A stretch of 64,000 bases of DNA, from positions 928,001 to 992,000 of the forward strand of contig CBDEUS010000001.1 of assembly GCA_965243395.1 (NCBI GenBank), written 5' to 3'. The notes under the pieces are model-generated. The model made no database searches. It was given only the letters and a program-made list of their open reading frames with translations, and had not been told where the DNA came from. Made by a program: the position numbers and the translations under genes. Source of the DNA: Gammaproteobacteria bacterium (lineage in GTDB: Bacteria; Pseudomonadota; Gammaproteobacteria; UBA4575). Below, piece after piece: positions 1,098 through 25,843 of this stretch. Positions within the stretch are counted from its first letter, which is position 1. Every line of letters begins with the position of its first letter.

Positions 1098-1103
1098 GGC
1101 TTT

Positions 1104-1721: not shown

Positions 1722-1725
1722 AATT

Positions 1726-2106: not shown

Positions 2107-2116
2107 GTAATAATTG

Positions 2117-2701: not shown

Positions 2702-2720
2702 AAGGGTAAAATTTAAAGCA

Positions 2721-3179: not shown

Positions 3180-3406
3180 GCAATTACTCTCGTGTTGTTA
3201 ACTCGCTGATTATTAAGGGCAAATATTATAAAATTGTAACAAGAACCCGTATGCACTAGCGCTCTTAGATAGTTTTGTCGGTCAATCTAGACAGATAATC
3301 GGCGATGATGATTGCTATACTGATAAAAATAAATCTAAATAAAATATATATTTATCAATAAGTTAATTCTATTTTTAATGTAATTTAACCTAAATAGAAT
3401 AATGAC

Positions 3407-4624: not shown

Positions 4625-4638
4625 TGTATACTCGAGGT

Positions 4639-6165
4639 TTAGTATTCAACATCTTCTTTAGTCACGCGCATGACTTCTTCAAGTGTAGTAACTCCCTCAA
4701 GTACTAGGCGAACTCCATCTTGTCGAATGCTCGCCGTATGCTGATGTGCATATTTTTCTAATTCTTGTTCAGCACCAATGTCATGAATCATGCCACGCAT
4801 ATTTTCATCAATCGCTACAAGTTCATAAATACCTGTTCTCCCTGAATAGCCTGTGCCATTGCATGCGCTACATGATCCGGGAGAATAAATTGTAGGTGGT
4901 TGACTAAACTCTTTTCCTGCTTGTTTTATTTGTTGAAGTTCAACATCATTTGCAGTGTGAGAAACTTTGCATTCTTCACACAATACTCGGACGAGGCGTT
5001 GAGCTAATACCGCAACTAAACTTGATGCAAGCAAAAATGGTTCAACTCCCATATCTCGCATACGTGTAATAGCACCTACTGCAGTGTTTGTATGCAAAGT
5101 TGAAAATACCATATGGCCCGTCAAACTGGCTTGTACAGCAATAGATGCCGTTTCCAAATCACGAATCTCACCCACCATCACAACATCAGGGTCTTGACGC
5201 AAAATTGCACGTAAGCCTCGTGCAAATGTCATGTCTACTTTTTGGTTAACTTGAGTCTGGCCAATTCCATCAATGAAATATTCAATCGGATCTTCAACCG
5301 TAAGAATGTTGCGTTTCTTGTTATTAATCTCACTTAATGCCGCATACAATGTTGTTGTTTTACCAGAACCCGTTGGACCGGTAACTAAAACAATACCATG
5401 TGGTTTTTCAATTGCTTGTTTGATCCTATCGTGAATTCCAGGTTGTAAGCCCAAGTGTTCTAAATCTAGTCGACCTGCCTGCTTATCTAGTAAACGTAAT
5501 ACCACACGCTCACCATGTCCCGAGGGCAGGGTAGAAACACGAACATCAACAGGGCGCCCTGCAATACGTAATGAAATACGACCGTCTTGAGGCAGACGTT
5601 TTTCAGCAATATCCAAAGCGGCCATTACTTTGATACGAGAAACAACCAACGCACCCAGGTTACGTGGCGGCTGTAACACTTCACGCAACACACCATCCAC
5701 CCGCATGCGTACCGAGAGTCTCGATTCAAAGGTTTCAATATGAATATCAGATGCGTTTTCTTTAACTGCTTGAGTTAATAATGCGTTGATTAAACGAATG
5801 ATAGGTGCGTCATCATCCGCATCCATTAAATCTTGTGGTTCTGGCAGGGCTTCTGCCAAGCTGGCAAGGTCAAGATCATCCTCAAAACCTTCCATTAATG
5901 CTAATGCACCCGTGGCGCTTTCGTCATACAGTTGTGTAAGCAATTCATCAAACTCATCTTCAGACAAGGTGCGAATATTAAGCGGCTTGCCTACAAATCG
6001 GCGCGCTTCCGCAAGAGAGGGGGGTTTTACATCTGGACGTTGAAAAATCATGACACGCCCGTTAATTTCGTTTCCGATTAAAATGCCATGGCGTTTAGCA
6101 AAGCTAAACGGCGGTCTACGAATTTCTCGTGGAGCAAGTGAAGGTTGTGCTTTTTCGGCTTCCAT
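4639..6165 (-). CDS. gspE: T2SS ATPase GspE
   Basis: Walker A GPTGSGKTT, ASDIHIE, LRQDPDVVMVGEIRD, tetracysteine motif. Confidence 0.97.
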   Translation of the reverse strand: MEAEKAQPSLAPREIRRPPFSFAKRHGILIGNEINGRVMIFQRPDVKPPSLAEARRFVGKPLNIRTLSEDEFDELLTQLYDESATGALALMEGFEDDLDLASLAEALPEPQDLMDADDDAPIIRLINALLTQAVKENASDIHIETFESRLSVRMRVDGVLREVLQPPRNLGALVVSRIKVMAALDIAEKRLPQDGRISLRIAGRPVDVRVSTLPSGHGERVVLRLLDKQAGRLDLEHLGLQPGIHDRIKQAIEKPHGIVLVTGPTGSGKTTTLYAALSEINNKKRNILTVEDPIEYFIDGIGQTQVNQKVDMTFARGLRAILRQDPDVVMVGEIRDLETASIAVQASLTGHMVFSTLHTNTAVGAITRMRDMGVEPFLLASSLVAVLAQRLVRVLCEECKVSHTANDVELQQIKQAGKEFSQPPTIYSPGSCSACNGTGYSGRTGIYELVAIDENMRGMIHDIGAEQELEKYAHQHTASIRQDGVRLVLEGVTTLEEVMRVTKEDVEY

Positions 6166-6181
6166 TATGAAGTACTCGTGA

Positions 6182-8311: not shown

Positions 8312-8486
8312 TTAGTTACGTAATTTTTACAAGGTAAATCTCAGTATCTTCAGCTTATCAGGATATACCTATAGCGAATACAAGTTGCCTGACTTTTATA
8401 CACTAAATCCCTATATATACGGTTAATATTCATCTCTGTGATCGCTATTCCTGGATTAATGGAGAATCTCGGTGCCTAGCTCCTGC

Positions 8487-9380
8487 TTATTGACTTAAAT
8501 CCTGGAACAACGTGATTTCGGTGCCTCCTCGATTCACAGTCAGCGTGACCTCCGTGGCGGTTGCGAGAGATTGCATTGCTTCAGGACCCTTATTTGGTGC
8601 ATCCAGTGTAACGCCATTAATATTGGTTACTACATCACCAGGCTCCAAACCCAATTTGTTGAACATTTCGGCATTTTTGCTCGGTGTGAGCTTATAGCCC
8701 ATAAACTTACCATCAGGGGAATTCTCTGGGGAAGCGTTTATGAATTCTGTCAAACGAACAGGGTTTTTCATGATTTCTTGTCGAAACTGACCAAGTGTCT
8801 CAAAGTTATTTTGAGCACTGGCCGGACTCGTTTGTGGCTGATTTGCTCTTTGACTGGTGGAGGTTGTTTTCTTTTGGCTAAATCCTTTAGCGTTTGCTCT
8901 TGGCAGACGCAATGTTTCCATCCTAATGTCACGCTCCAGTATCACTCGATCTGCATACACTGCATGAAGGACAGCACCACCAGGAATATCATCGCCTAAT
9001 GCATAGTGTTTGATTTTATTCGCACCACTGGAAATGATGGCGTAACCATATTCCTTTCCACCTGCAAGTACGCCTAGAAGTTTTAAATTCAAAGTAGTTT
9101 CGGGAGCATTTTCAACTTTTTTCACAGAAGCAGCTGGGGCAGGTTTACCCATCAAATGTAGCTGCGCGATCTTTCGGTCGTGATTCGCACGGGGTTGTGG
9201 TTTTACATTTGTTGGAGCCGTGGCGGGGGGTGCAATTACAACATCTGAGCCGCTATCAAAAAATCCCCAAATCAATTTAGCCAAAGTAATTAAGATTAAG
9301 ACAACCAAAGCTATACTGACCCAGCGGGGCAGTTTCATTTCAATCTTGGGCCAAAGGTTATTTAAAGCTGCAGCGTCCAT
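8487..9380 (-). CDS. gspC: T2SS protein GspC with PDZ domain
   Basis: N-terminal TM helix, APETTLNLKLLG HR domain, GLEPGDVVTNING PDZ. Confidence 0.93.
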   Translation of the reverse strand: MDAAALNNLWPKIEMKLPRWVSIALVVLILITLAKLIWGFFDSGSDVVIAPPATAPTNVKPQPRANHDRKIAQLHLMGKPAPAASVKKVENAPETTLNLKLLGVLAGGKEYGYAIISSGANKIKHYALGDDIPGGAVLHAVYADRVILERDIRMETLRLPRANAKGFSQKKTTSTSQRANQPQTSPASAQNNFETLGQFRQEIMKNPVRLTEFINASPENSPDGKFMGYKLTPSKNAEMFNKLGLEPGDVVTNINGVTLDAPNKGPEAMQSLATATEVTLTVNRGGTEITLFQDLSQ

Positions 9381-10074: not shown

Positions 10075-10680
10075 ATGCCGACTTCAATTGACCTGCAAAA
10101 CTTAAACCAAGAAACGCTGAATAAGTGGTTTGATGAAAGATTAGAACAAAAATTACAAGAAAGAGAAGAGTCCAAAATCCCGCAACTTTCACTTATTGCT
10201 ACAAAAGGCACCATGGATATGGCTTATCCGCCATTTATTCTTGCTTCCACAGCCGCAGCATTAGGTTGGGAAGTATCCTGTTTCTTTACTTTTTATGGTT
10301 TAAATTTATTAAAGAAAGACCTTGATTTAGAAATTTCACCTTTAGGCAATCCTGCAATGCCCATGAAAATGCCTTTTGGTCCGGAGTGGTTTAAAAGTGT
10401 TGAGTGGAACATACCCAATGCGTTGAGCAGTAACATCCCGGGTTTTGAAAAGTTTGCAACTTCAATGATGTCTCAAACTCTTAAGAGCAAAGGTGTTGCA
10501 AGCGTTGAAGAGTTACGCGAGCTTTCTATTGAAGCAGATGTGAAACTCGTCGCGTGTCAAATGACAGTAGACTTATTCGGCTATGAAAAAGATGAATTTA
10601 TTGACGACGTGAGTGATTGGGTAGGTGCTGCATCATTCTTGCCAGCGGCACAAAAATCAGATATCTGTTTATTCATTTAG
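10075..10680 (+). CDS. DsrE2-like sulfur-carrier protein (DsrE/DsrF/DrsH-like family)
   Basis: ATKGTMDMAYPPFILASTAAALG, FFTFYGL, ACQMTVDLFG motifs typical of DsrE2-type proteins; RBS CAGGAG. Confidence 0.85.
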   Translation: MPTSIDLQNLNQETLNKWFDERLEQKLQEREESKIPQLSLIATKGTMDMAYPPFILASTAAALGWEVSCFFTFYGLNLLKKDLDLEISPLGNPAMPMKMPFGPEWFKSVEWNIPNALSSNIPGFEKFATSMMSQTLKSKGVASVEELRELSIEADVKLVACQMTVDLFGYEKDEFIDDVSDWVGAASFLPAAQKSDICLFI

Positions 10681-10690
10681 CAAACTAAAA

Positions 10691-11251
10691 TTGAAAGCAT
10701 CACTAGTATTTGGATTCATTTTATTTCTAGGTGTTTCTGCATGCTCACAAAATGTAGAAAAACAGCTCACAGAAAGCAGAGAAGCTACCCAACAACTTGG
10801 CAGTCAACTTAAAAAAAAGTTAGTGCAAAGCATGCAAACCGGTGGCCCAATAGGAGCATTGGACGTTTGCAATATAGAAGCTGAAGATATTGCAGGCAGT
10901 ATTTCTAACAAACTTGGATTAGAAGTAGGTCGAACTTCTCTCAAACTTCGTAACGTAAACAACGCTTCGGATGATTGGGAAAATGAAGTGTTACATTATT
11001 TTGAAAAGCAAAAACAATCTGGAGCAGAGATAAAAAACCTTGAAATCTATGAAATTACTAAAGACATGGATGGCAAGTGGTTTCGTTATATGAAAGCCAT
11101 ACCAACCGCAGAGGTTTGTTTAATGTGTCATGGTGATACCATTGCGCAACCCGTACAAGAAAAACTTCAATCTCTTTACCCAAATGATCAAGCAACAGGT
11201 TTTAAAGCAGGGGATATTCGCGGAGCTTTTACAGTGAAGTTAAAAATGTGA
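10691..11251 (+). CDS. DUF3365 (Tll0287-like) c-type heme lipoprotein
   Basis: Lipobox VSAC, GRTSLKLRN, FRYMKAIPT, CLMCHG heme motif, ATGFKAGDIRGAF; start uncertain (TTG 10691; track gives 10625). Confidence 0.82.
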   Translation: MKASLVFGFILFLGVSACSQNVEKQLTESREATQQLGSQLKKKLVQSMQTGGPIGALDVCNIEAEDIAGSISNKLGLEVGRTSLKLRNVNNASDDWENEVLHYFEKQKQSGAEIKNLEIYEITKDMDGKWFRYMKAIPTAEVCLMCHGDTIAQPVQEKLQSLYPNDQATGFKAGDIRGAFTVKLKM

Positions 11252-11328: not shown

Positions 11329-12606
11329 TTATCCAAACATTTCAGCAGTCATATTATTAAACCAGCTATATGCATATTCCACTTCGCGTTTAAGCATTTC
11401 TGGAGAAGCATCTTCAGGAGTCAATCCACCGCCAAGCTTTTTAATCTCCGAACGATCTTCAGCTAATTCATATACCGCTACAACAGAAATTCCATAATCC
11501 GGTGCAATCAAGCTATAGCAAGCATTGGCGTAAGATGCTACAGGTGCATCCTTGCCTTGCAATAAGCTGACTACGGCTGCAGCACATACTTTTGCTTGCG
11601 TGCCGGCCGCATAACCAGACTTAGGCATACCTTTGGCAATACTGGCATCACCAATCACATGCACATCTTTATGTTTTGTTGATTCAAAGGTACCGAGATC
11701 AACCGGGCACCAACCTGAGTCATCTACAAGATCAGAGTCATGTGCAATTTGGGCGGCGTGTTGTGGAGGAATAATATTGGCTACTGCAACTTTATGGTCG
11801 TCGAAGTCCGTGCTTACCGTCATATCTTTTGTATTTACTGACTTAACTCCACCACCTGTGTCTGCACCAGCAACCCACTCAATCATCTCTCCATATACTT
11901 TTTTGTAGCCTTGCATAAACAAACCTTGTTTAGAGAACTTGTCTTTAGCATCAAGGATAAGCAATTTTGACTTTGGCTTATTGTGTTTTAAGTGATGCGC
12001 AATTTGTGCAGCGCGTTCATAAGGTCCAGGCGGACAACGGAAAGGGTTTTGTGGTGGCGCAATAATAACGAGACCACCATCATCCATTGATTCTAGCTGG
12101 CTACGAAGCAAAGCAGTTTGTGGTCCTGCTAGCCAAGAGTGAGGCATCACTTCTGAAGCTTCTTCACTATAACCTTCAATAGCACCAAATTTTAATGAAA
12201 TGCCCGGGGATAGCACACAACGGTCATATTCTAATGTAGTTCCGTTTGCAGTCATCAATTTGTGTGCTTCAGCATCAACCATGGTTGCTTTATCTTGAAC
12301 TAATTTAATACCGTGGCTGGAAATATTATCGTAGCCAAATTTAATAGTAGAGATATCACGATCACCACCAATGACTTCGTTACTCATAAAACAAGTGTGA
12401 TGGTGTGCTTTTGGCTCAACAATGGTAACTTCAATAGATGAATCACCTTTTGCTATATATTTAGCAGCAATTAAACCGCCAACTCCACCACCAACAACTA
12501 CAACACGCTTCTTTGCCGCATGTGCGAGAAACGGAAAACTTAAACCACCAGTAGCTAATGCACCGCCAGTGGCTTTTAAAAAACTTCTTCGATTTAGATT
12601 TGTCAT
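11329..12606 (-). CDS. fccB: flavocytochrome c sulfide dehydrogenase, flavoprotein subunit
   Basis: Tat signal NRRSFLK, VVVVGGG Rossmann fold, PFRCPPGPYERA, MPKSGYAA, NACYSL redox Cys pair. Confidence 0.93.
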   Translation of the reverse strand: MTNLNRRSFLKATGGALATGGLSFPFLAHAAKKRVVVVGGGVGGLIAAKYIAKGDSSIEVTIVEPKAHHHTCFMSNEVIGGDRDISTIKFGYDNISSHGIKLVQDKATMVDAEAHKLMTANGTTLEYDRCVLSPGISLKFGAIEGYSEEASEVMPHSWLAGPQTALLRSQLESMDDGGLVIIAPPQNPFRCPPGPYERAAQIAHHLKHNKPKSKLLILDAKDKFSKQGLFMQGYKKVYGEMIEWVAGADTGGGVKSVNTKDMTVSTDFDDHKVAVANIIPPQHAAQIAHDSDLVDDSGWCPVDLGTFESTKHKDVHVIGDASIAKGMPKSGYAAGTQAKVCAAAVVSLLQGKDAPVASYANACYSLIAPDYGISVVAVYELAEDRSEIKKLGGGLTPEDASPEMLKREVEYAYSWFNNMTAEMFG

Positions 12607-12635: not shown

Positions 12636-13295
12636 CTATTGGTTTGCATAAAATTGAATTAAATCACGCATTGCTTCATCACCAGCAGCGGTATGCGCTT
12701 CTTCCATTTGTTTTTTCATTTTCTTGGGCATTTCACGATTGCCATTATTGTAATCGTCAAGTGTATATTGTAAGTAAGGTACCCATTGACCAGCCAAAAC
12801 TCCTGCATCATCTTCTGCAGAGCTGCCACCATCTTCATGACATTTTTCACAATGCGCTTCATGTAATTTCGCACCAGACTTAGCTTGACCATCATCTGCA
12901 GCTTGTTCGGCACTTTCAAACGGCAATTCTGCAAAGTACTTCGCAATGAGTTTAATTTCTTCTTCGGAATACCCTTGAGCAATCCGATCCATTACTGTAG
13001 AGGCTCTGGCAAAGTATTCCACATCTTCAAAATCAGGATCCGATTCAATAATTTCATCAACTTTATCTTCATCATCGCCATACTTATAAGCGAGCATTGC
13101 GCCTATGATGTAAAGTTCTGACATTCCTGAAATGGTGGGCGTTGCTGGTCCTTCACTAATCCCTTCAGGTCCATGACAACCTAAACAAGTATTTGACAGC
13201 ATTTCTGCGCTAGCACCATCTGCAGCTGCAGGTGAAGTGAAAGTTACTCCAAACAATAAAATTAATAGAGTAACAAGGATGCGATGATCTAACAT
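12636..13295 (-). CDS. fccA: flavocytochrome c, diheme cytochrome subunit
   Basis: Sec signal, CLGCH and CEKCH heme motifs, STVMDRIAQGY; start at ATG 13295 behind AGGAGGA. Confidence 0.9.
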   Translation of the reverse strand: MLDHRILVTLLILLFGVTFTSPAAADGASAEMLSNTCLGCHGPEGISEGPATPTISGMSELYIIGAMLAYKYGDDEDKVDEIIESDPDFEDVEYFARASTVMDRIAQGYSEEEIKLIAKYFAELPFESAEQAADDGQAKSGAKLHEAHCEKCHEDGGSSAEDDAGVLAGQWVPYLQYTLDDYNNGNREMPKKMKKQMEEAHTAAGDEAMRDLIQFYANQ

Positions 13296-13439
13296 AGAAC
13301 TCCTCCTAATTCCTGGATCCATATGTTGTTATTAATCTGGTACATAGTCATGCATAGACTAAGTACGTGGGAAACTTTAGCACATTGAAAAAACGTATTT
13401 AGCTCTATTCTAATGAAAATTCCTGATTTGTTTTAAGAT

Positions 13440-14006
13440 TTAAGCTTTTTCGTCTTCTTCTTGCTCTTTAGGGATCTCGTGAGCAACTTCTTCAGGCTCT
13501 TCCGGGATTTCATGAGCAACGCCTTTATGGCAATCAATACAGGTTTTTTCGCTGTCACCTTTAGCAATTTTCTTATGTTTTTTGCGCGCAGAGCGATCTT
13601 GTTCTTTTAGGTCCATTGCCGCTATTAAATGACATGACTTACATTCACGTGAATCGGTCGCTTTCATTCGATCCCAAACTGAATTGGCCATTTCCCAGCG
13701 ATAAGCTTCAAATTTTTCTTCCGAATCAATCGCACCAGTAATTTCTCCCCAGACGTCTTTAGCCGCACGAAGTTTTGCAACAAGTTTGGGCCCCGTTTCG
13801 TGAGGAACATGGCAATCAGAGCATTCTGCACGTACACCTGAAATATTTGTGTAATGAATACTCTCCATCCATTCTTCTTGCACCCATTGCATAGAATGGC
13901 AAGAGGTACAAAACTCAGTGCTGTTTGTAGCTTTCAATGTCACCGAGGAGCTAGTGCTTAAAGCTGCACCTATTAATAACAGTAAAACAATAAAAATTAG
14001 CTTCAT
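13440..14006 (-). CDS. NapC/NirT family membrane-anchored tetraheme cytochrome c
   Basis: N-terminal hydrophobic helix, FCTSCHSM, SGVRAECSDCHVP, SRECKSCH, KTCIDCHKGVAH. Confidence 0.92.
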   Translation of the reverse strand: MKLIFIVLLLLIGAALSTSSSVTLKATNSTEFCTSCHSMQWVQEEWMESIHYTNISGVRAECSDCHVPHETGPKLVAKLRAAKDVWGEITGAIDSEEKFEAYRWEMANSVWDRMKATDSRECKSCHLIAAMDLKEQDRSARKKHKKIAKGDSEKTCIDCHKGVAHEIPEEPEEVAHEIPKEQEEDEKA

Positions 14007-14317: not shown

Positions 14318-15622
14318 ATGAAAACAATTTTTCTATTTATCTTTGGATTAATAGTCTGGTTACTGCTAACCAACTATCAAGTTGTATATTCAAAAATTAC
14401 ATCTTTTGTAAATCTTGAAACAGAGAATACTGAACTTGTCAGCACTGATAACAATATCGAAGCTATCAAAGACACTGTTAATCAAGCAAACGAAAATGAA
14501 ACATCAGATACTAGCTCTGAATTAACTGAAGAAGACGTAGCGAGCCTAGGAGAAGAACAAAATACTAATTCTGATGAATCGATTGCAGAAGAAAATATAA
14601 TTGAAACAACAGATAAAACTGCAGAATCTCAACTGATTGAAGTTACAGCTGCTAGTAACAACCTTGAAGAAGCTGAAACAGATTCAGAAGAAGAGTTTGA
14701 AAAAGAGGCGGAAACTGAAATTGATCAAGCTGTTCAATCTCAAGTAGCTGCAAATTTTCCTATGTTTAATCAATCAATGATGTCCGCTTGGACACCATAC
14801 ATGAATAACAATGCCTATAACCCATGGGCGAACCAATATACAAATATGATGATGGCAATGATGGGTATGATGATGAATCCTGCAACGTACATGAACCCCA
14901 TGACGATGATGAATCCCTCAGTCAACATCATGACACAGCCTCAAAATTTGAATGCAATGATGATGTCCATGGATCCCAAGATGGTGTTCGGCATGTTTGG
15001 ACAACCTAGCCAAAGCTATAAAGAAGGCGAGACACCAGATCAACTACCTGTGGTTACAATTCCAGGTTTTCCTACTCAAACATATCAAAGCTGGCCAAAA
15101 AACACTGTTTCACCTGAAATAACACGTGAAGCAAAGCTCCACGCATTTCAAACTGCAATGGCCATGAGCCCGCTATCGATGCGCAATATGGTTAGCATGA
15201 TGGCCGATAAAATTCCTGTAGACGAGGGTGTGAGTTGGGATGATGCAGTCGAAGCTATGAAACTTCGCGCAAACGAAGTTAACTTTAAATTTGTGGGTTC
15301 AAGTCCACTATGGAAACAAATTGAAGCAGAGACTGAACAACCTTCTGCCAAAGTTGAAATGTTCCGCTTCTGCGATGCAAGAATGGCGAGAAAAATTTTA
15401 GATGAAGTACCCGAGTTTATTGTGTTTTTACCTTGCAAGATTGCGTTGCTAGAAGATGCAGAAGGTAAGCTTTGGGTAATGACTTTAGATTGGGACGTTA
15501 GCTGGTTGGACTATGCGCAAAATCCAAATAACCATTTATCTAAAGATATTCGAGAACATGCAGAAGTGATTAGGGAAAATATTCAATACATCATGGAAGG
15601 TGCGGCAACCGGAGATTTTTAA
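14318..15622 (+). CDS. membrane-anchored or exported protein: acidic linker, Met-rich segment, C-terminal DUF302-like domain
   Basis: Hydrophobic N-terminus, long E/T/S/N-rich region, MMMAMMGMMMNPATYMNP segment, C-terminal AVEAMKLRAN...FRFCD...FLPCKIALLED.GKLWV resembling DUF302. Confidence 0.75.
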   Translation: MKTIFLFIFGLIVWLLLTNYQVVYSKITSFVNLETENTELVSTDNNIEAIKDTVNQANENETSDTSSELTEEDVASLGEEQNTNSDESIAEENIIETTDKTAESQLIEVTAASNNLEEAETDSEEEFEKEAETEIDQAVQSQVAANFPMFNQSMMSAWTPYMNNNAYNPWANQYTNMMMAMMGMMMNPATYMNPMTMMNPSVNIMTQPQNLNAMMMSMDPKMVFGMFGQPSQSYKEGETPDQLPVVTIPGFPTQTYQSWPKNTVSPEITREAKLHAFQTAMAMSPLSMRNMVSMMADKIPVDEGVSWDDAVEAMKLRANEVNFKFVGSSPLWKQIEAETEQPSAKVEMFRFCDARMARKILDEVPEFIVFLPCKIALLEDAEGKLWVMTLDWDVSWLDYAQNPNNHLSKDIREHAEVIRENIQYIMEGAATGDF

Positions 15623-15664
15623 TTCTTTTTGATTAAATTTTAATTGTAATAGCGGAGAAGAGTA

Positions 15665-16432
15665 ATGATAACAAAGAGTAAAATCCTTCAATCAATTGCA
15701 GTTGTAATTGGTTTATTTATTGCTGGGGCTGCAGCGATTCATGCAGATGAACATGCAGGAAAGGATGCTGAAAATAAAGCAAACCCGACTGCTTCATATT
15801 TTAATTGGGGGGGTCAAATGAGTCCTGCGATGCAGAACTCAATGAAGCCTGAAGTCCAGAAAAAAATGATGGGTTGGATGGCTCGACCACAAGACATGAT
15901 GACTATGGAAGGTTGCGCCGCGTGTCATGAAGGCGAGAACTTGGCCCGAATTGCGAAAGACTGGGGCCCGATGCTGTCATCTATGAAGCCAATGGTGGAT
16001 ATGATGAACCCGATGACAGGCATGGTTGAACCCATGATGAACCCCATGATCAGCATGATGCACCCAATGGCGGATATGATGGGTCCAATGATGAATATGA
16101 TGGGACCAATGATGGCGCCTATGACTGGAATGATGAACCCTATGATGGGAATGATGACTCCTATGATGGCGCCTATGACTGGAATGATGAATCCCATGAT
16201 GGCAGGCATGGCTAATCCAGCTCTGATGATGAACCCAGGTTGGTACATGAGCATGATGGGACCAATGATGGGCATGATGTATCCCATGATGAACCCTATG
16301 GGGATGATGGGTGGCTATGGTGGCTATGGCGGTAACTCAATGGGTCAAATGATGGATCCTAAGCAGTATGAAAACTGGTTCAATCAGTGGACAGAGTCCA
16401 TGCAGAACATGGCTCCACAAACTAAACAATAA
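15665..16432 (+). CDS. exported Met-rich repeat protein with one CxxCH motif
   Basis: RBS GGAG, Sec signal ending IHA, CAACH, about 65 Met in 255 aa (hand count), PMM repeats. Confidence 0.85.
   Translation: MITKSKILQSIAVVIGLFIAGAAAIHADEHAGKDAENKANPTASYFNWGGQMSPAMQNSMKPEVQKKMMGWMARPQDMMTMEGCAACHEGENLARIAKDWGPMLSSMKPMVDMMNPMTGMVEPMMNPMISMMHPMADMMGPMMNMMGPMMAPMTGMMNPMMGMMTPMMAPMTGMMNPMMAGMANPALMMNPGWYMSMMGPMMGMMYPMMNPMGMMGGYGGYGGNSMGQMMDPKQYENWFNQWTESMQNMAPQTKQ
16338..16395 (+). repeat. 58-bp direct repeat, copy 1 (copy 2 at 16973-17030)
   Basis: caatgggtcaRatgatggatcctaagcagtaYgaaaactggttcaatcagtggacaga; 56/58 identical, both differences synonymous. Confidence 0.95.
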
Positions 16433-16453
16433 AGTAAGTTCATTTAATGTTGG

Positions 16454-16485
16454 TAAGTCGTGTGTAGAGCACTATGCACGACTTA
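16454..16485 (+). terminator. intercistronic stem-loop (attenuator, partial terminator or mRNA stabiliser)
   Basis: TAAGTCGTGTGTAG-AGCA-CTATGCACGACTTA, 14-bp stem including two G-U pairs, weak U tail. Confidence 0.6.
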
Positions 16486-16545
16486 GTTATTTCATCGCAT
16501 ACTAGTTTTATTAGCACTAACTACGCAATTAAAGGCAATTACACT

Positions 16546-17076
16546 ATGCAATCTCTCCAAAAAACAATCCTCTTCTTAACTATTACGTGTTGTCTATTCA
16601 TTGTTGGCGCTTCTAACAGTCTTGCTGAGAATAAAGAAAGCACTGCTCCTGATATGAGCGCAATGATGGGTATGATGAATCCAGCAATGTATATGAACAT
16701 GATGAATCCGATGATGGGCATGATGAATCCAGGGATGTACTCGAATATGATGAACCCCATGATGGGTGGGATGAATCCTATGAATCCCATGGCAGGTATG
16801 AACATGATGTACCCGATGATGGGCATGAGTGCTCCAATGATGGGATCAATGATGAATCCAATGATGGGTATGAATATGATGTACCCGATGATGGGCATGA
16901 TGGGGCCTATGATGTCTCCTATGGGTGGAATGGGAATGCCAGGAATGTCTTATAGCACCCCAAATAGTAATCCAATGGGTCAGATGATGGATCCTAAGCA
17001 GTACGAAAACTGGTTCAATCAGTGGACAGAAATGATGAAAAACTTCACACCCCCAACAAATACAACATCTAAATAG
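16546..17076 (+). CDS. exported Met-rich repeat protein
   Basis: Start at ATG 16546 gives signal peptide MQSLQKTILFLTITCCLFIVGASNSLA; about 52 Met in 176 aa (hand count); C-terminal MGQMMDPKQYENWFNQWTE. Confidence 0.85.
   Translation: MQSLQKTILFLTITCCLFIVGASNSLAENKESTAPDMSAMMGMMNPAMYMNMMNPMMGMMNPGMYSNMMNPMMGGMNPMNPMAGMNMMYPMMGMSAPMMGSMMNPMMGMNMMYPMMGMMGPMMSPMGGMGMPGMSYSTPNSNPMGQMMDPKQYENWFNQWTEMMKNFTPPTNTTSK
16973..17030 (+). repeat. 58-bp direct repeat, copy 2
   Basis: See copy 1 at 16338-16395. Confidence 0.95.
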
Positions 17077-17105
17077 TATTCGTTTTATTTATTAGACAAA
17101 TATAA

Positions 17106-17582
17106 ATGAATAAAATAGTTCAACAAGCGCTCTTCATAATCCCAATTGCTGCATTAATTGTTGCCCCATTAGTAATTGATCATGAAAAAATAGAATCAAA
17201 ATTTTTTAGTTCTGAAAAGTCAATTACACAGTCTCAATCTAACCATCATAATGATGTAGATTTTAATCTACCGCATGTCGTTGATAATGAACAATATGCA
17301 ATGTCCGAACCATTTTCAGAACACTCTTTTTTCATACATCCATGCAATATGGGCAACCCTATGGACCCTGCTGCTTGGATGAGCATGATGATGCGTATGA
17401 TGAATTACATGCAAATGACGCAGATGATGCAGCAAATGACTAAAATGCCGACCGGGATGACTAATCCATCAGCGACGTGGATGAGCCCACATATGATGAT
17501 GCCAAATCAACCAAATACCGCGAAGCAGCCACTAAGCCCAAAGGAATATGAGAAGTGGTACAACGAGCAGCTTAAAAAGTAA
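17106..17582 (+). CDS. membrane-anchored Met-rich protein
   Basis: N-terminal hydrophobic helix, MDPAAWMSMMMRMMNYMQM segment, C-terminal LSPKEYEKWYNEQ similar to the neighbours' tail. Confidence 0.8.
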   Translation: MNKIVQQALFIIPIAALIVAPLVIDHEKIESKFFSSEKSITQSQSNHHNDVDFNLPHVVDNEQYAMSEPFSEHSFFIHPCNMGNPMDPAAWMSMMMRMMNYMQMTQMMQQMTKMPTGMTNPSATWMSPHMMMPNQPNTAKQPLSPKEYEKWYNEQLKK

Positions 17583-17780
17583 TTCTTGAAGTTATAAAGA
17601 GTGCTCAACTTGGCTGAAAATAAGGTTTATCCGCGCAATTATGAATTCTGATGCTTACATTTTAAACACTTGTAAAATCTCACAAACTGTACGATACATA
17701 ACTACAGTGATGTATACATCCATATATGCATTGGTATAATTCGCGGCCTTTAAAACTATTACCTCAGCGGATAGATAACC

Positions 17781-18926
17781 ATGGAAGAATTATCTAACTT
17801 ACATCTTGTTGCCCTACTAGGATTCTGTATAGCCTTAGTATTCGGCTTTGTTGGAAACAAAACCCATTTTTGTTCAATGGGTGCGATTAGTGATGTAGTT
17901 AATATGGGCGCCAAAGGCAGATTAGGTGCCTGGTTCCTTGCTATAGGCCTTGCCATCCTTGGAGCACAATTCCTCTTTCTTCAAGGTTATATCGATTTAA
18001 ATGCTTCAGTTTATTTATCCCCTAATCTTTATATTTTAAGTTATGTACTGGGTGGCATTCTGTTTGGTATTGGCATGACACTCGCAGCCGGTTGTGGTCA
18101 ACGAAATTTAGTCAGAGTAGGGGGCGGCAACTTAAAAGCATTAGTGGTTTTAATAATCTTAGGCATCACCGCATACATGACCATGCGAGGCGTACTAGCT
18201 ATGGTGCGATTGAATTGGGTGTATGCCGTCAATGCAGACTTAACGACACAAGGTATTCAAGACCAAAGTTTATTTAGTTATTTAGGTGCGCTATTTAATT
18301 TAGAAGATGCCAGTCTGCTAAGAAAAATTGGTGGATTTATCATTGCATTTGGCTTTATTGCTTATGCTTTTAAACAAAAAGAATTCAGAACCAGTTTTGA
18401 TAATGTTCTAGCCGGTGTTGTTATTGGCGTCTGTATTACCGCAGCCTGGTTTGTAACAGGCTATATCGGGCAAGATGACTTTGACCCGATCACTCCACAA
18501 GGCATGGCATTTATAGGTCCAACTGGTAACACTATTAGCTACCTTATGACGTTTACGGGTGCACAAATTAACTTTGGAATAGCCGTTGCTCTTGGCATGA
18601 TTGCTGGCTCATTTATTTATGCAATATTTTCTGGAAATTTCAGAATAGAAACTTTTAGTAACAAAACTGAAATGGTCAATCACATGATCGGTGGAGTATT
18701 GATGGGATTTGGTGGTGTATTGTCTTTTGGATGCACCATTGGACAAGGCGTTACAGGTATGTCTACGTTGGCAATTGGCTCGATGATGACTTTAGCTTCC
18801 ATCATCTTTGGCAGTGCGCTTACCATGAAAATTCAATATCACATGCTAGATGAAAAAGGCTTTTTCCCTGCGCTAGGCACCGGCTTATCTGAGCTACTTA
18901 TACCATGGAAAAAACAAGAAGCTTAA
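17781..18926 (+). CDS. YeeE/YedE family sulfur-compound transporter
   Basis: Multi-TM protein with three conserved Cys motifs THFCSMG, AAGCGQR, FGCTIGQG. Confidence 0.9.
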   Translation: MEELSNLHLVALLGFCIALVFGFVGNKTHFCSMGAISDVVNMGAKGRLGAWFLAIGLAILGAQFLFLQGYIDLNASVYLSPNLYILSYVLGGILFGIGMTLAAGCGQRNLVRVGGGNLKALVVLIILGITAYMTMRGVLAMVRLNWVYAVNADLTTQGIQDQSLFSYLGALFNLEDASLLRKIGGFIIAFGFIAYAFKQKEFRTSFDNVLAGVVIGVCITAAWFVTGYIGQDDFDPITPQGMAFIGPTGNTISYLMTFTGAQINFGIAVALGMIAGSFIYAIFSGNFRIETFSNKTEMVNHMIGGVLMGFGGVLSFGCTIGQGVTGMSTLAIGSMMTLASIIFGSALTMKIQYHMLDEKGFFPALGTGLSELLIPWKKQEA

Positions 18927-18957: not shown

Positions 18958-19374
18958 GTGCACTTATCATACCGAATTCTATTCGTTCTCTTTTTAATAT
19001 CTATCTCAACAATAGTATTTTCCGAGCAAGATGATCCTGTTGTTACTGGATCCAAAACATTTAAAGCAAAATGTGCTTCATGTCATGGAGATGATGCTAA
19101 AGGAAAAAATTCTAGTGACACTGACACAAAACTGAATGCTCCTGATTTAACACAGATTTCAAAAAGAAATAAAGGCGAATTTCCCGTATCGAGAATCTAT
19201 GCAATTATTGATGGTAGGGAAGTGTTACAAGAACACGGCACGCGCGCGATGCCAACTTGGGGGGATCTATTTTTATCAGATACGATTTGGGAAGGTTGCA
19301 GTCAGGTAGATGAGCAAATTGTTCGCGGCAGAATTTTAGAACTCATTTTATATCTTGACTCTATTCAGCAGTAA
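18958..19374 (+). CDS. monoheme class I cytochrome c
   Basis: Signal peptide, CASCHG, APDLTQISKRNKGEFP, HGTRAMPTWG with axial Met. Confidence 0.88.
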   Translation: MHLSYRILFVLFLISISTIVFSEQDDPVVTGSKTFKAKCASCHGDDAKGKNSSDTDTKLNAPDLTQISKRNKGEFPVSRIYAIIDGREVLQEHGTRAMPTWGDLFLSDTIWEGCSQVDEQIVRGRILELILYLDSIQQ

Positions 19375-19437: not shown

Positions 19438-19755
19438 TTACTTAATTACTGCTTCTCCTGAACCGGTTTCGCCAAGATTATCTGTCCAGCTAATTTTTAC
19501 CGTATCTCCAGCGTTTCCACCTTCAAACTCAAATGACCAGTAAGGGTTTTTAGAAACTCCTGTTCCCCATTCAGCAGAAATAATCATTTCACCGTTGAGT
19601 TCGGCTTTTACTTCTTTAATAAAGTGTGCAGGAATGAGTTCGCCCGTTTCTTTGTCTTTTCGACTACCGGACTCCATTTCGTGATACATAATGGCTTTCA
19701 CGACAGTAACGCCATCTTTTAATTTCGCCCTAATTTTCATTTCTTTTTCAGCCAT
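19438..19755 (-). CDS. soxZ: sulfur carrier protein SoxZ
   Basis: HEMESGSRKD, IPAHFI, GVSKNPY, WTDNLG motifs. Confidence 0.94.
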   Translation of the reverse strand: MAEKEMKIRAKLKDGVTVVKAIMYHEMESGSRKDKETGELIPAHFIKEVKAELNGEMIISAEWGTGVSKNPYWSFEFEGGNAGDTVKISWTDNLGETGSGEAVIK

Positions 19756-19773: not shown

Positions 19774-20223
19774 TTAAACGCAGCCGCCGGCCGTTACTTT
19801 TACAGCACTTTTACTTGAGTAAAGTTTTCCATCCGATTTAACAATTGCAACTACATTGGATGACTCGCGCAATTTAATACGTGTGGATACAAATGGTTTT
19901 GATTTTCCGTGAAAATAAAACCTTGAAATCCAAGGACGAGGGTTTTTATCACCCATAATGCTGATCCATTCAACATTTTCCAAATCGGTTGAAACCTTTA
20001 CGGGTACCGTTGCACCGTTTTCTGCAATTTCGGGTGCATCAATCATAACGTGACCTTCTAATAATTCTTGATCACCAATTAAACCTTTAAGAGCAGGTTC
20101 ATATTCGGTTTCATCAAAGGCTGCTGTAGGCCACTCTGCCGAAAGAATAGAAGGGATGCCCATTGCCGATAGCAACCCCACATAAAAGCTTTTTTCTAAA
20201 AAATTTCTTCTGGATATCTTCAT
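19774..20223 (-). CDS. soxY: sulfur carrier protein SoxY
   Basis: Tat signal SRRNFL, APEIAENGATVPV, KNPRP, STRIKL, C-terminal VKVTAGGCV. Confidence 0.93.
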   Translation of the reverse strand: MKISRRNFLEKSFYVGLLSAMGIPSILSAEWPTAAFDETEYEPALKGLIGDQELLEGHVMIDAPEIAENGATVPVKVSTDLENVEWISIMGDKNPRPWISRFYFHGKSKPFVSTRIKLRESSNVVAIVKSDGKLYSSKSAVKVTAGGCV

Positions 20224-21695: not shown

Positions 21696-22568
21696 GTGAA
21701 TGAAATGACTCGAGAATTCTGCATAGAATTGCGCGGGATTGAACTAAAAGACCGCAATGTTCTAAAGCGTATACTAGCGATTACAGAAGGTCGTACGCGC
21801 ACCTATAGACTAGTTGATTCTACCGAATCCGACCACGCCGATATACTTATTGTTAATGCAGATGACAACAATATAAAAGAGGAGTGGGCACAGGAATTTA
21901 TTGGCACGAATGGAATTTGTATGATTCCAACTATCCTGGCTAGCAGATCCAGACTCGAAGATACTCAATACAACAGCACAAGTTTACCTTTCTTTCCAAC
22001 ACGGATTTTAAAATTACTCGATGAGGTTACCGTAAAAGAGTTTAGATTCACTCCTGAACTCCGTATTGAAGAACCGAAAAATATAGAGATAGAAACCGAA
22101 AAAGAATATAACTCTTTTAACCAACGTAACTATAAAGCTGAATTAAGTAACAAAGAACTAGAAACATTTATTGGCCAAGCTGATATCGGTGTCGATCAGA
22201 ATAGAAAACGTAATGTTTTAGTTGTTGACGATAGTCTGCCGATTCGAAAAGCATTAGATATGAAGCTTCGTTTGATGGACTATGATGTTCATCATGCATC
22301 TAGTGGCCGTCAGGCTTTATATTCCATTCAAAAAACCCGATTTGATTTTATATTTCTTGATGTTGTCATGCCTGGTATCGATGGATATGAGGTTTGTAAA
22401 CTTATAAAACGAAACAAATCAACTAAAAACATACCTGTAGTGATGCTTACAAGTCGATCATCACCATTCGACAAAGTAAAAGGAAGATTAGCAGGTTGTG
22501 ATTCATATCTAACCAAACCGGTTGAACATGAAAAGTTCGAGAAAGTTGTTGCTAGTCTGGTTGCTTAA
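21696..22568 (+). CDS. PilG-like response regulator with N-terminal extra domain
   Basis: C-terminal receiver VLVVDDS...FLDVVMPGIDGY...SSPFDKVKGRLAGCDSYLTKP typical of PilG. Confidence 0.82.
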   Translation: MNEMTREFCIELRGIELKDRNVLKRILAITEGRTRTYRLVDSTESDHADILIVNADDNNIKEEWAQEFIGTNGICMIPTILASRSRLEDTQYNSTSLPFFPTRILKLLDEVTVKEFRFTPELRIEEPKNIEIETEKEYNSFNQRNYKAELSNKELETFIGQADIGVDQNRKRNVLVVDDSLPIRKALDMKLRLMDYDVHHASSGRQALYSIQKTRFDFIFLDVVMPGIDGYEVCKLIKRNKSTKNIPVVMLTSRSSPFDKVKGRLAGCDSYLTKPVEHEKFEKVVASLVA

Positions 22569-22579
22569 AAGGATTTGTT

Positions 22580-22942
22580 ATGAGTAGCAAAGTACTAATT
22601 GTTGATGATTCTAAATTCGATCTAGAGTTATTAAAGACAATTGTTAGCAAAGAAGGCTACGAAGTTATAACTGCAATATCTGGCCAAGAAGCTGTTGACA
22701 AAGCAACTAGCGTACATCCGGACTTAATCTTTATGGATGTCATTATGGAAAACAAAGACGGTTTCGAAGCTTGTCGAGAGATCATTTCCAATACAGAAAC
22801 AAAACACATACCCATCATTTTTGTTACAGGTAAATGTCAAAAAGCCGATCGAATTTGGGCTGAATTACAAGGTGGTAAAGCTCTAGTTGGAAAACCCTTT
22901 ACACCTGACCAAATAGTTAACGAGATTCATAAGCATATTTAG
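22580..22942 (+). CDS. pilH: PilH-like single-domain response regulator
   Basis: VLIVDDS, DLIFMDVIM, DGFEACR, KADRIWAELQGG. Confidence 0.82.
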   Translation: MSSKVLIVDDSKFDLELLKTIVSKEGYEVITAISGQEAVDKATSVHPDLIFMDVIMENKDGFEACREIISNTETKHIPIIFVTGKCQKADRIWAELQGGKALVGKPFTPDQIVNEIHKHI

Positions 22943-22952
22943 ATAAAACGAT

Positions 22953-23498
22953 ATGGATACCACAAACCCTCAACATAACGAAACCTCATGGCTTTTAGAT
23001 AATGAAAAGCTGATTGAAAAACTTGAATCTGCCTATCAAGGAAAGTCGAATGAAAAGGAAAGTAGCACTGTGCTGCGGTGTTATGGATTCAAGGCAGGGA
23101 ACATGAATTTTATTATAGATGAAGCTATAGCTTGTGAAATATTAGATGAAAGTAACATTCATTTTGTTCCAATGAGTGCCAGTTGGTTAATAGGCGTTTC
23201 AAATATAAGAGGCGATGTAGTACCTATTATTGATTTAGAAAAGTTAATTAACGGAGATGATTCAAATGCCGAGTATAAAAATAGAAAGCTAGCAATCATT
23301 GGGAAAGGTGAAAATACCATTGGAATTGAATTAGATGAATTACCAGTTTTATTGGAATTTGATAAAAGAAAAAAAATAAATGATTTTTCTAATCAAGCTG
23401 ATCGTATACAACCGTTTATTCAATATGCATACGAGAAAGATGATGATATTTGGTTCTGTATTAATTTTCCTCCGTTTATTGAATCTATCTCTTTTTAA
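22953..23498 (+). CDS. CheW/PilI-like coupling protein
   Basis: WLIGVSNIRGDVVPIIDL CheW motif. Confidence 0.85.
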   Translation: MDTTNPQHNETSWLLDNEKLIEKLESAYQGKSNEKESSTVLRCYGFKAGNMNFIIDEAIACEILDESNIHFVPMSASWLIGVSNIRGDVVPIIDLEKLINGDDSNAEYKNRKLAIIGKGENTIGIELDELPVLLEFDKRKKINDFSNQADRIQPFIQYAYEKDDDIWFCINFPPFIESISF

Positions 23499-23531
23499 AT
23501 TTAACTATATACATGCTATTAGGACAAAGTC

Positions 23532-25808
23532 ATGATTAATTCAAGCATACTCTCAAACATATCGATTAACAAAAAGCTCACAATATTATTCATATCTGTA
23601 GCAGTCGGTTTTGCGATTACCACTGCCGCATATTGGTTTAAAGTTATGAACGAACGTGAGTCAATAGAACGTACAAATTTATTTATTGAATATAGTAATC
23701 TCATTAGCGAGGCACAAAAGAACTATTTTAAAGTAAGGAGATTTGAAAAAGACTTTTTACTAAGTATCTCAGCTTCTACGGGTCAAACATACAACAATAC
23801 ACCATTAGATGAACACGCAAAGCATGTATCTTTGCTAGAAGATAACATGGTCGAATTGCGAAACTTAGGCGATAAAATTAATGCATCAAGGTCTGAAGAA
23901 GTAGTTATCAACGAGATAGAGATGCCTGTCGAGTATATTCCCGAACTCGTTACACAAGCATCAACTGTTGTAGATAATTATAAAACATCATTTTCAGACA
24001 TCGTAAAGTTCAATCAATTTGTAGGTTTTACTGACAATGATGGTTTAAGGCTGAAAGCAAGACAACTTCTAAATTCAATCGAAAGTAATTTAGTAAAAAC
24101 TGAAAATCCGAAATTACTCGTTTCTATAGCTAATCTTCGATTTAACGAAAAACATATTCTACAGTCAATTGACTTAACCGAGTCGTATGAGAATCTTAAA
24201 ATTGAAGCACAAGAATTTAAAAAAATATTGAAACGTACCCCTCTAAATCTACAAAATAAAAATCTTTTAGTTAACTATATGGATGACTATTTGAATATTG
24301 TAGAAGAAATAGTCACAAATAAACGAAATGCAAACGAATATACAGAGCTTTATGATTTTATGTTAGGCCCAATGTTCGACGAGATGGGTAGATCCTCACA
24401 ATTAAGTATCATTCAAAACCAGGCTGCATTAGAAAAAGACACCATAATTGCAACGCTAGTTGTGACAATTTTATTGATTGCAATAGCAATTTTAATTACT
24501 TCTTTGCTTTATTATTTTGGTGATTCAATTCGAAAGCCTATTAATAAGCTTTTAAACACAATACATGATGTCAATAAAGGTAACCTAAATGCAAGAGTAA
24601 AATCTGATCAAAAAGATGAGTTTGGTGAACTTGCCGATTCCTTTGATCAGCTTCTTGATGAAAAAGTCGCACAGCTCTCAAATTCGGAAAAAGAAAACGA
24701 AGATCTCAATGAGTCAGTGATAGAACTAATAAAAGCTGTAGCACAGCTCAGTAAAAAAGACTTTACTGTAAAAGTGCCAGTTTCTGAAGATATCACTGGA
24801 GCAATTGGTGATTCGCTTAATTTATTGACACATCAAACTGCAGACGCACTCATTAATGTGAGAACAATTTCTTCTCAAGTAGCTGGTGTCTCTAATATCG
24901 TGCATAAACAATCTAGACTCGTAATGGCTGTTGCTGAACAAGAACGCAAGCAAGTTGAACATACTGTGGTAGAGCTTAATAAATCCTCCGATGCGATGAA
25001 TAAAATTTCTACCGACGCTGAGGATGCAAACAAAAGAGCTGATAATGCAATTAAAAATACACAATCTGCATTGACTGCTGTAAATCGCTCCGTTGAGGGT
25101 ATTAATAGTATTCGAGATACGATTCGTGAAACAGAAAAAAGAATTAAACGTCTAGGTGAACGATCACAAGAAATTACCGGAATTGTTAATTTAATTAACT
25201 CTATTGCTGAGCGTACCCACATTCTTGCACTCAATGCGAGTATGCATGCCTCGGCTGCTGGTGAAGCTGGTCGCGGGTTTGCTGTGGTTGCAGAAGAGGT
25301 GCAGCGTCTTGCGGAAAGTGCGCGTGAAGCAACAACTGAAATAGATACGCTTGTAAATAATATTCGTATTGAAACAAAAGATACTGTTACCGCAATGAAC
25401 AAAGCAATAAGTCAGGTTGCTGATGGGACCAAACTTGCTGAACAAGCTGGTGAAGCTATGCAACATACCGAAAAATCGACTGAAGATTTGGTTAAGGCCG
25501 TAGAAAAAATTACTGTTAGCTCAAAAGATCAGGCTAATGTAAGCCAAGAAATTGTAGAAAAGTCAAAAGAAATTGTACTAAATACACGTAAAACTGATAA
25601 ATACCTTCAAAAGCAAACAGTCAACACCAATAATCTTGTTAAGTTTTCCAAGAAACTACTCTCTACAATTCGTACATTCAATCTTCCTGAAAAAGAATCT
25701 GATCCATATAACATTAATGTACAAACCATTGATGTTCCCGAAATTTCAGATGCAATTAAAAAGCAAGATGCAAATGAAGCAGGTAATGACAAAGTCGTAA
25801 ACGCTTAA
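23532..25808 (+). CDS. PilJ-like methyl-accepting chemotaxis protein
   Basis: Two TM helices, HAMP (DEFGELADSF), RIKRLGERSQEI and ILALNASMHASAAGEAGRGFAVVAEEV signalling domain. Confidence 0.92.
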   Translation: MINSSILSNISINKKLTILFISVAVGFAITTAAYWFKVMNERESIERTNLFIEYSNLISEAQKNYFKVRRFEKDFLLSISASTGQTYNNTPLDEHAKHVSLLEDNMVELRNLGDKINASRSEEVVINEIEMPVEYIPELVTQASTVVDNYKTSFSDIVKFNQFVGFTDNDGLRLKARQLLNSIESNLVKTENPKLLVSIANLRFNEKHILQSIDLTESYENLKIEAQEFKKILKRTPLNLQNKNLLVNYMDDYLNIVEEIVTNKRNANEYTELYDFMLGPMFDEMGRSSQLSIIQNQAALEKDTIIATLVVTILLIAIAILITSLLYYFGDSIRKPINKLLNTIHDVNKGNLNARVKSDQKDEFGELADSFDQLLDEKVAQLSNSEKENEDLNESVIELIKAVAQLSKKDFTVKVPVSEDITGAIGDSLNLLTHQTADALINVRTISSQVAGVSNIVHKQSRLVMAVAEQERKQVEHTVVELNKSSDAMNKISTDAEDANKRADNAIKNTQSALTAVNRSVEGINSIRDTIRETEKRIKRLGERSQEITGIVNLINSIAERTHILALNASMHASAAGEAGRGFAVVAEEVQRLAESAREATTEIDTLVNNIRIETKDTVTAMNKAISQVADGTKLAEQAGEAMQHTEKSTEDLVKAVEKITVSSKDQANVSQEIVEKSKEIVLNTRKTDKYLQKQTVNTNNLVKFSKKLLSTIRTFNLPEKESDPYNINVQTIDVPEISDAIKKQDANEAGNDKVVNA

Positions 25809-25843
25809 ACATAGAAAAAATATATATAAAAGATTTTAACAAA

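Follow-up and report, generated by a model that had tools for sequence, protein, structure and literature searches.

What is the role of four exported, extremely methionine-rich proteins encoded in the middle of a sulfur-oxidation gene cluster? The question arises from a 64,000-nucleotide stretch of a gammaproteobacterial genome (GCA_965243395.1, contig CBDEUS010000001.1, positions 928,001 to 992,000; hereafter the window), in which four open reading frames (ORFs), P1 to P4, lie co-oriented on the + strand with intergenic gaps of 42, 113 and 29 nt. From the ORF list and amino acid composition, supplemented by Pfam for P1 and by alignment for P2, P1 was placed at 14318-15622 (434 aa), P2 at 15665-16432 (255 aa) and P4 at 17106-17582 (158 aa); P3 ends at 17076 and has its likelier start at 16546 (176 aa), the long ORF from 16474 giving 200 aa. 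Met accounts for 8.1% of P1, 25.5% of P2, 29.5% of P3 (26.5% of its 200-aa ORF) and 13.3% of P4, the window mean being 3.3% over 49 ORFs of at least 150 aa, and Met density peaks at 48% per 60-residue window in both P2 and P3. An earlier sequence-only reading of the same DNA had described four co-oriented genes for exported or anchored Met-rich proteins and had counted by hand about 25% and 30% Met in the second and third; the ORFs, the N-termini (read by eye) and the computed composition agree with it. We propose, with moderate confidence, that the operon encodes a periplasmic module that would handle zero-valent (sulfane) sulfur and feed it into the route formed by SoxYZ, the membrane channel YeeE, DsrE2/TusA and rDsr.

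The distribution of P2 identifies the part of this operon that is conserved. Scanning one genome per species with a P2 alignment yielded 39 loci, all in metagenome-assembled genomes (MAGs), labelled as Gammaproteobacteria (34), Thiotrichales (3), Pseudomonadota (1) and Arenicellales (1). In 37 of these loci P1 and P2 are direct neighbours, and the remaining two are contig-end fragments. The synteny anticipated by the sequence-only reading was borne out, with YeeE encoded in 35 of the 39 loci, SoxYZ in 32 and FccAB in 25; DsrE2 (34) and NapC (24) are similarly frequent. P4 is present in 14 loci, P3 in 10 and P5, a further Met-rich protein described below, in 18. YeeE, SoxY and DsrE2 occur together in 29 of the 37 P1-P2 loci, most of the others being short contigs. 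The conserved core is thus the P1-P2 pair, with P3, P4 and P5 optional, and the unit of four Met-rich proteins originally envisaged is replaced by a protein with a haem motif (P2) and a protein with a DUF302 domain (P1). Homologues had been expected among sulfur oxidisers rather than next to copper (cop, cus) or msrPQ genes; those found are confined to uncultured Gammaproteobacteria, mostly beside the genes for SoxYZ, YeeE, DsrE2/TusA and FccAB. Within the family of the host, P1 is matched in 17 of 24 other genomes, comprising 15 strong matches, one contig-end fragment (G010) and one weak, generic DUF302 match (G015), and the whole arrangement is kept in 9 of the 10 relatives examined.

Four gene orders were distinguished, written here with <> at a change of strand. 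The window belongs to type A, dsrE2/fccBA-napC <> P1-P2-(P3)-(P4)-yeeE <> soxYZ. Type B reads dsrE2-P1-P2-yeeE <> soxZY, with tusA nearby, and type C reads yeeE-fadL-dsrE2-tusA-soxA-soxZY-cytc <> P1-P2 followed by a small lipoprotein gene, with thioredoxins and a rhodanese nearby. Type D, from the Arenicellales MAG (locus L061), is cytc-soxYZ-soxA-soxB-arsR <> P2-P1-yeeE-dsrE-like, with fccAB. Because the linkage to SoxYZ, YeeE and DsrE2/TusA survives all four arrangements, we read the pair as part of a sulfur module, and this persistence is the strongest fact in favour of that reading. A FadL-like gene stands between yeeE and dsrE2 in 5/5 type C loci (for example, L030 4203-5588, - strand). 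Two further features of these loci were noted. The lipoprotein encoded 3′ of P2 in 5/5 type C loci is a conserved protein of 135 residues with no known family (L030 11119-11526, + strand). In L061, an ArsR-family regulator gene (9005-9313, - strand) is divergent from P2-P1-yeeE, an arrangement reminiscent of the soxR-soxT pairing.

Shorter forms of the pair were recovered from a P2 profile search of 1.84 billion representative proteins, which returned 97 matches at E<=0.001. The weakest of these (P0218, P0249, P0250, P0258, P0264 and P0274) were rejected as unrelated repeat proteins, that is, as noise from the repeat tract. Minimal P2 proteins have 130-165 residues; they retain signal peptide, CxxCH module and C-terminal helix, but their Met tract is short. 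In four metagenome loci, the gene immediately after a minimal P2 encodes a P1-like DUF302 protein of 249 residues. The minimal pair of locus L074 is accompanied by two P5-like proteins, one of them with 25% Met, and that of L075 is followed by tusA. Since minimal pairs occur without long Met tracts, the constant unit is the haem-motif/DUF302 pair, extreme Met tracts and additional paralogues having been amplified in particular lineages.

P1 starts with a hydrophobic segment, followed by an acidic linker (D/E make up 29% of residues 30-150) and a Met-rich tract (about 155-230); in its C-terminal half, a conserved linker precedes a DUF302 domain with Cys352 and Cys373. Residues 340-391 score 37.1 bits with Pfam DUF302 (PF03625; cut-off 23), and both cysteines, which correspond in alignment to the cysteine pair of TT1751, are invariant among 38 aligned P1 relatives. 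The C-terminal 222 residues of P1 were modelled with AlphaFold on these 38 relatives, and the model contains a well-formed DUF302 domain (pLDDT mostly 70-93) preceded by a poorly defined lead-in of 80 residues. Foldseek matched this model to 1q9u (E 2.9e-7, TM on target 0.78), 7tj1 (5.9e-7) and 1j3m (8.4e-7), with TM on target of 0.70-0.78 across the three; these sole matches are all uncharacterised DUF302 structures. The DUF302-like ending that had been seen in one of the proteins is therefore recovered by both the Pfam score and the fold match. By sequence, the only match in the PDB was 1j3m (E 0.83). Among the 120 listed of 324 database relatives of P1, PF03625 is present in all 120 and a functional name in none. 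No paper giving DUF302 a function was found in the available excerpts of its literature. P1 presents this known domain of unknown function in a new architecture. Two other DUF302 occurrences were recorded. The DUF302 protein of G036 (L021) was set aside, as it belongs to a different subfamily, without P2 and without obvious sulfur neighbours. Genome G015, of the same family as the host, is without the P1 type; its locus L080 (C67, 7129-8576) presents a further SoxY-DUF302 adjacency: after the gene for a SoxY-domain protein of 300 residues, the other strand encodes a plain DUF302 protein of 161 residues.

P2 comprises a signal peptide, a CxxCH module (about residues 50-115), a Met-rich tract (about 120-227), and an amphipathic C-terminal helix (about 232-249). 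The CxxCH motif that had been pointed out in one of the proteins is CAACH at residues 84-88 of P2, and C84, C87 and H88 are invariant in 43 aligned relatives. As an exported protein with a CxxCH motif, P2 is a putative c-type cytochrome, and haem binding is what this motif leads us to infer. The suggestion that a haem subunit redox-wires the system is plausible, its basis being the invariant CxxCH. In the P2 model, the residues around CxxCH (50-115) form a helical module with pLDDT 82-90 and the C-terminal helix (232-249) is confidently predicted, whereas the Met tract (120-227) has pLDDT 39-56. The model gave no match at E<=0.001 against the PDB with Foldseek, and a wide comparison with VIA-align gave single-helix matches only (Z<5); in a protein-atlas search with P2, the top match, an unnamed cluster scoring 0.78, was too weak to count as a lead. 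Complex prediction for the C-terminal part of P1 with mature P2, run without controls, scored 0.00 and gives no answer either way.

The remaining Met-rich proteins share parts of P2. Beyond its signal peptide, P3 consists of a Met-rich tract (34% Met beyond residue 27) and a C-terminal helix of the P2 type, without CxxCH; 24 of 32 helix residues are the same in P2 and P3. This helix is strongly amphipathic, its hydrophobic moment being reached by 0 of 2000 shuffles. P4 has an N-terminal hydrophobic anchor, a Met-rich tract and a C-terminal helix related to that of P2 and P3, and its homologues in 4 of 14 relatives also contain the CxxCH module. By sequence, a fifth member of the set is encoded further downstream: P5 (30381-30989, - strand, 202 aa) is exported, contains 10.9% Met, seven copies of an NPxxY-type unit and two conserved cysteines, and likewise ends in a helix related to that of P2 and P3. 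The sequence-only reading had assigned a motif of this type to all four operon proteins. Compared with shuffled sequences, [D/N/S]Pxx[Y/W/F] is enriched in P2 (p 0.016), P3 (p 0.002) and P4 (p 0.019), as well as in P5, but P1 has one copy and is not enriched (p 0.30), so the claim stands for three of the four. Among relatives, the repeat number varies and the number of P3 genes ranges from 0 to 3. Pfam and NCBIfam match nothing in the operon beyond DUF302; P2, P3 and P4 have no family match in either, consistent with the initial impression that no characterised family was recognisable.

The N-termini and the translation starts were also inspected. P2 and P3 have classic signal peptides, and P1 and P4 have an N-terminal hydrophobic segment without an obvious AxA cleavage site (all read by eye); P1 proteins of other lineages have a normal signal peptide. 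A terminator-like hairpin of 14 pairs with a T-rich tail was found by consensus scan just 3′ of the P2 stop codon (16454-16485, + strand), where it runs into the beginning of the longer P3 reading frame. Because the hairpin covers the longer start and relatives begin at the equivalent Met, 16546 is most likely the translation start of P3. Lying between P2 and P3, the hairpin could raise the dosage of P1 and P2 over that of P3 and P4 or stabilise the upstream transcript. Two minus-strand ORFs rich in Ile, Gly and Pro (15925-16287 and 16539-16898) were rejected as genes, since their sequences simply mirror the ATG-rich sense strand.

The host genome, which is 100% complete in 2 contigs, defines the metabolic setting. 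It contains dsrA and dsrB, and searches of it for a SoxA-type cytochrome, SoxB, SoxC and the RuBisCO large subunit found none of these; the SoxYZ of the host therefore stands without the enzymes that canonically load and unload it. In the 24 other genomes of the family, dsrA was found in 23, SoxY in 19 and SoxB in 3 (G016, G020 and G024). Sixteen genomes, the host included, have a strong P1 match, and 15 of them gave no SoxB match, a pattern among kin that is not a statistical test. The host is probably a SoxYZ-only rDsr sulfur oxidiser with a heterotrophic or mixotrophic lifestyle.

The flanks that had been read from the sequence, NapC-fccAB and DsrE2 on one side and YeeE/YedE, cytochrome c and soxYZ on the other, were all confirmed by Pfam. 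Upstream lie dsrE2 (10075-10680, +) and, overlapping its end, a gene for a Tll0287-like haem protein with one CxxCH (10625-11251, +), followed by fccB (11329-12606, -), fccA with two CxxCH (12636-13322, -) and a tetrahaem napC/nirT gene with four CxxCH (13440-14006, -), the last divergent from P1. That FccAB is encoded with NapC suggests that its electrons pass via NapC to the quinone pool rather than to a soluble cytochrome. All three genes, fccB, fccA and napC/nirT, are kept in 24 of the 39 related loci. The Tll0287-like (PAS-like c-haem) protein, which is possibly a redox or sulfur sensor, occurs in 11 of the 39. Downstream of P4, a promoter-like site (17713-17740, consensus scan) precedes yeeE/yedE (17781-18926, +), whose product is a SoxT-like membrane channel matching Sulf_transp with 214 bits (E 4e-63). 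Its Cys31, Cys105 and Cys318 stand in the conserved-looking motifs FCSMG, GCGQR and GCTIGQ, respectively, and are presumably the channel cysteines of the family. Next come genes, also assigned by Pfam, for a small monohaem cytochrome c (18958-19374, +), SoxZ (19438-19755, -) and SoxY (19774-20223, -), the latter with a Tat-type leader. SoxY ends in GGCV, with the carrier Cys in the penultimate position, unlike the GGCGG that we take to be the canonical ending.

Farther from the operon, type II secretion genes occupy 159-9380 upstream (Pfam). Type II secretion was rejected as the export route: T2SS-C is encoded in 8 of the 39 loci, all of them close relatives, and the adjacency is taken as coincidental. 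A chemotaxis-like cluster (21696-29176, +) encodes two receiver proteins, CheW, a methyl-accepting chemotaxis protein and a CheA-CheW-receiver hybrid. In relatives, P5 directly follows soxY and a HAD hydrolase gene, whereas in the window the chemotaxis-like cluster sits between soxY and HAD-P5. A gene for a FadL/TodX-family outer-membrane channel (33577-34896, -; Pfam), 2.6 kb beyond P5, is a possible part of the system. A cytochrome P450 gene (42232-43602, -) lies 24 kb from the operon; excerpts of PMC11582611 mention a putative P450 also in the soxT region of Hyphomicrobium denitrificans, and the resemblance is probably a coincidence.

These observations can be combined in the following model, in which we infer the sulfur binding, the transfer steps and the direction of flow from gene content and conservation. 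Sulfide would first be oxidised in the periplasm by FccAB, together with NapC. The flexible Met-rich tracts would then bind the resulting S8 or polysulfide, or S8 from outside, and keep it soluble, serving as a flexible, polarisable and hydrophobic binding phase. The P2/P1 core would pass sulfur to or from the SoxY Cys and present it to the YeeE/SoxT-type channel, perhaps exchanging electrons as well, and DsrE2/TusA would take over the sulfur in the cytoplasm for oxidation by rDsr. P3, P4 and P5 would be optional, paralogue-like additions that supply Met-rich NPxxY-type units and the shared amphipathic C-terminal helix. The low confidence of the Met tract in the P2 model and the varying repeat and P3 numbers would fit a bulk binding material. 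The FadL-type channel found in 5/5 type C loci and, in the window, beyond P5 hints at a route for the uptake of hydrophobic S8, which we treat only as a lead.

Several facts weigh against this proposal. Genome G018, from the same family, has yeeE facing soxZY without P1 or P2, so that route does not strictly require the pair. In the long locus L072, the neighbours of a minimal pair are RuBisCO, cbbX, a GST and tctABC, and no sulfur gene lies closer than 8 kb. The core is not always Met-rich: P1 of L061 contains 5% Met, and minimal P2 proteins have short Met tracts. The DUF302 domain is without a known function, so no chemistry can be borrowed for P1. General chemistry leads one to expect Cu(I) binding and oxidant scavenging of any Met-rich peptide. 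Finally, soxA (types C and D) and soxB (type D) stand beside the P1-P2 pair, which, like the arrangement in G018, argues against a strict dependence.

A more specific version of the proposal, which we regard as doubtful, holds that the thioether-rich, disordered P2-P5 form a Met-based periplasmic phase dissolving S8 or polysulfide, that P1 and P2 load and unload SoxYZ without SoxAX/SoxB and gate YeeE, and that uptake through FadL is possible. If it were true, the solvation of elemental sulfur by thioether-rich disordered proteins would be a previously unknown strategy of the cell, DUF302 would gain a first function, and the missing periplasmic import step of Dsr-type oxidisers would be filled.

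Of the other explanations, the one that survives best makes the Met-rich proteins a sulfur-globule envelope or matrix, analogous to Sgp, which would coat or permeate S0 and leave the haem and DUF302 parts secondary. The proteins resemble SgpA-D of Allochromatium vinosum in being exported, repetitive, low-complexity proteins of variable copy number from sulfur oxidisers that handle or store periplasmic S0, and P2 even holds a short GGYGGYGG stretch. FccAB and rDsr without SoxCD are typical of globule formers, and the host, in which FccAB and rDsr are present and no SoxCD was found, has that gene set. In the available excerpts of PMC10386293, the A. vinosum envelope proteins are described as extremely hydrophobic. 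Sgp proteins are, on the other hand, of a Gly/Tyr type, and the composition here is Met/Pro/Asn/Gly. SgpA-D also differ in having no haem motif or DUF302 partner, a distinction drawn from descriptions rather than from sequence alignment. Moreover, P2+P1, not the bulk Met proteins, is the conserved unit (P3, P4 and P5 being the optional members counted above), and minimal forms exist nearly without a repeat tract. We consider a globule envelope rather unlikely.

Another alternative is a redox enzyme pair, in which the cytochrome P2 and the thiol protein P1 would oxidatively couple sulfide or polysulfide to the SoxY Cys in place of SoxAX/SoxB and the Met tracts would act only as linkers or haem ligands. 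Both the CxxCH and the Cys pair are invariant, the small cytochrome c and NapC encoded beside the operon offer possible electron outlets, and the complete host genome has SoxYZ with no SoxA-type cytochrome or SoxB found. A simple replacement is nevertheless difficult to reconcile with the soxA and soxB genes that adjoin P1-P2 in the loci of types C and D. P2 also has no third conserved Cys of the haem-ligating kind that we take SoxA to use, and neither Foldseek nor VIA-align found a fold match for its module. We judge this explanation unlikely.

We hold it to be still less probable that the proteins bind or buffer soft metals, Cu(I) or Ag(I), in a sulfidic periplasm. Met-only sites bind Cu(I), and the tracts contain many MxxM, MxM and MM spacings. 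CopA/PcoA/CueO, PcoE/SilE and CusF likewise have Met-rich periplasmic segments, and Met-rich proteins in the available literature excerpts are mostly copper proteins. P1-P4, however, match no copper family in Pfam or NCBIfam, their tracts are poor in His and Asp, and their conserved partners are all sulfur proteins. Among the ORFs scanned with Pfam, which came from the window and from loci of types B, C and D and thus were a part of the ORFs of the 39 loci, no cop, cus or msrPQ gene was found. The same scan bears on the weakest alternative, in which the proteins would be sacrificed to oxidants or reactive sulfur species in the manner of Azospira suillum MrpX and MsrPQ would repair their Met sulfoxide. 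We consider this very improbable: the proteins share periplasmic location and extreme Met content with MrpX, and the host has one MsrP/YedY-like gene, but MrpX is reportedly encoded with msrPQ and a sigma/anti-sigma pair in place of the sulfur-protein partners seen here, no msrP/msrQ-like gene adjoins P1-P2 in the scanned loci, the only PF00174 (Oxidored_molyb, MsrP/YedY-like size) match of the host (C1:1126748-1127215) lies about 185 kb from the operon (about C1:942318), and the invariant haem motif and DUF302 partner would have no role.

The handling of zero-valent sulfur by a P1-P2 core thus remains the reading we prefer. The passage of periplasmic sulfur to Dsr or sHdr in the cytoplasm has long been a missing piece, and the module is a conserved and tightly linked candidate for it; its carriers, as far as found, are all uncultured. 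The module also gives a first lead on the role of DUF302, which is widespread and has three solved structures. Should the Met tracts bind S0, this would be a new biochemical solution for an insoluble substrate. No published description of these proteins was found in the available excerpts of the literature on Met-rich proteins with sulfur globules, sulfur oxidisers and DUF302, or on YeeE/SoxYZ/DsrE2. P2-P5 are without a family; the pathway to which they attach is already known.

Comparison with known systems places P1 and the module more precisely. With DUF302/TT1751-like proteins, P1 shares the Pfam match, a superposing fold and both TT1751 cysteines. Its placement among sulfur-oxidation genes has parallels in unrelated bacteria, namely Acidithiobacillia, Sulfitobacter and the cyanobacterium Synechocystis, where, according to excerpts of PMC5037610, PMC11034169 and PMC5061849, DUF302 genes with no assigned function lie within sox or sqr clusters. 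P1 differs from known DUF302 proteins in its export segment, acidic linker, Met-rich tract, partner P2 and the conserved stretch, about 80 residues long, that precedes the domain. The nearest parallel to the route as a whole is H. denitrificans, in which, according to excerpts of PMC11582611, SoxYZ-bound sulfane sulfur needs the YeeE-like SoxT1A to enter the cytoplasm; the transfer from SoxYZ to the channel is stated there, in 2024, to proceed "by unknown means", with DsbA or SoxS proposed. Both systems have a YeeE-family channel gene beside soxYZ and cytoplasmic sulfurtransferases, with a cytoplasmic finish, and in both the soxT system and L061 an ArsR-type regulator adjoins the channel genes (P2-P1-yeeE in L061). 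They differ in that a SoxA-type cytochrome and SoxB were not found in our host and that the cytoplasmic sink is sHdr in H. denitrificans and rDsr here. The periplasmic helpers differ as well: those proposed for H. denitrificans are the thiol-disulfide oxidoreductases DsbA or SoxS, and the operon described here encodes Met-rich, haem-motif and DUF302 proteins.

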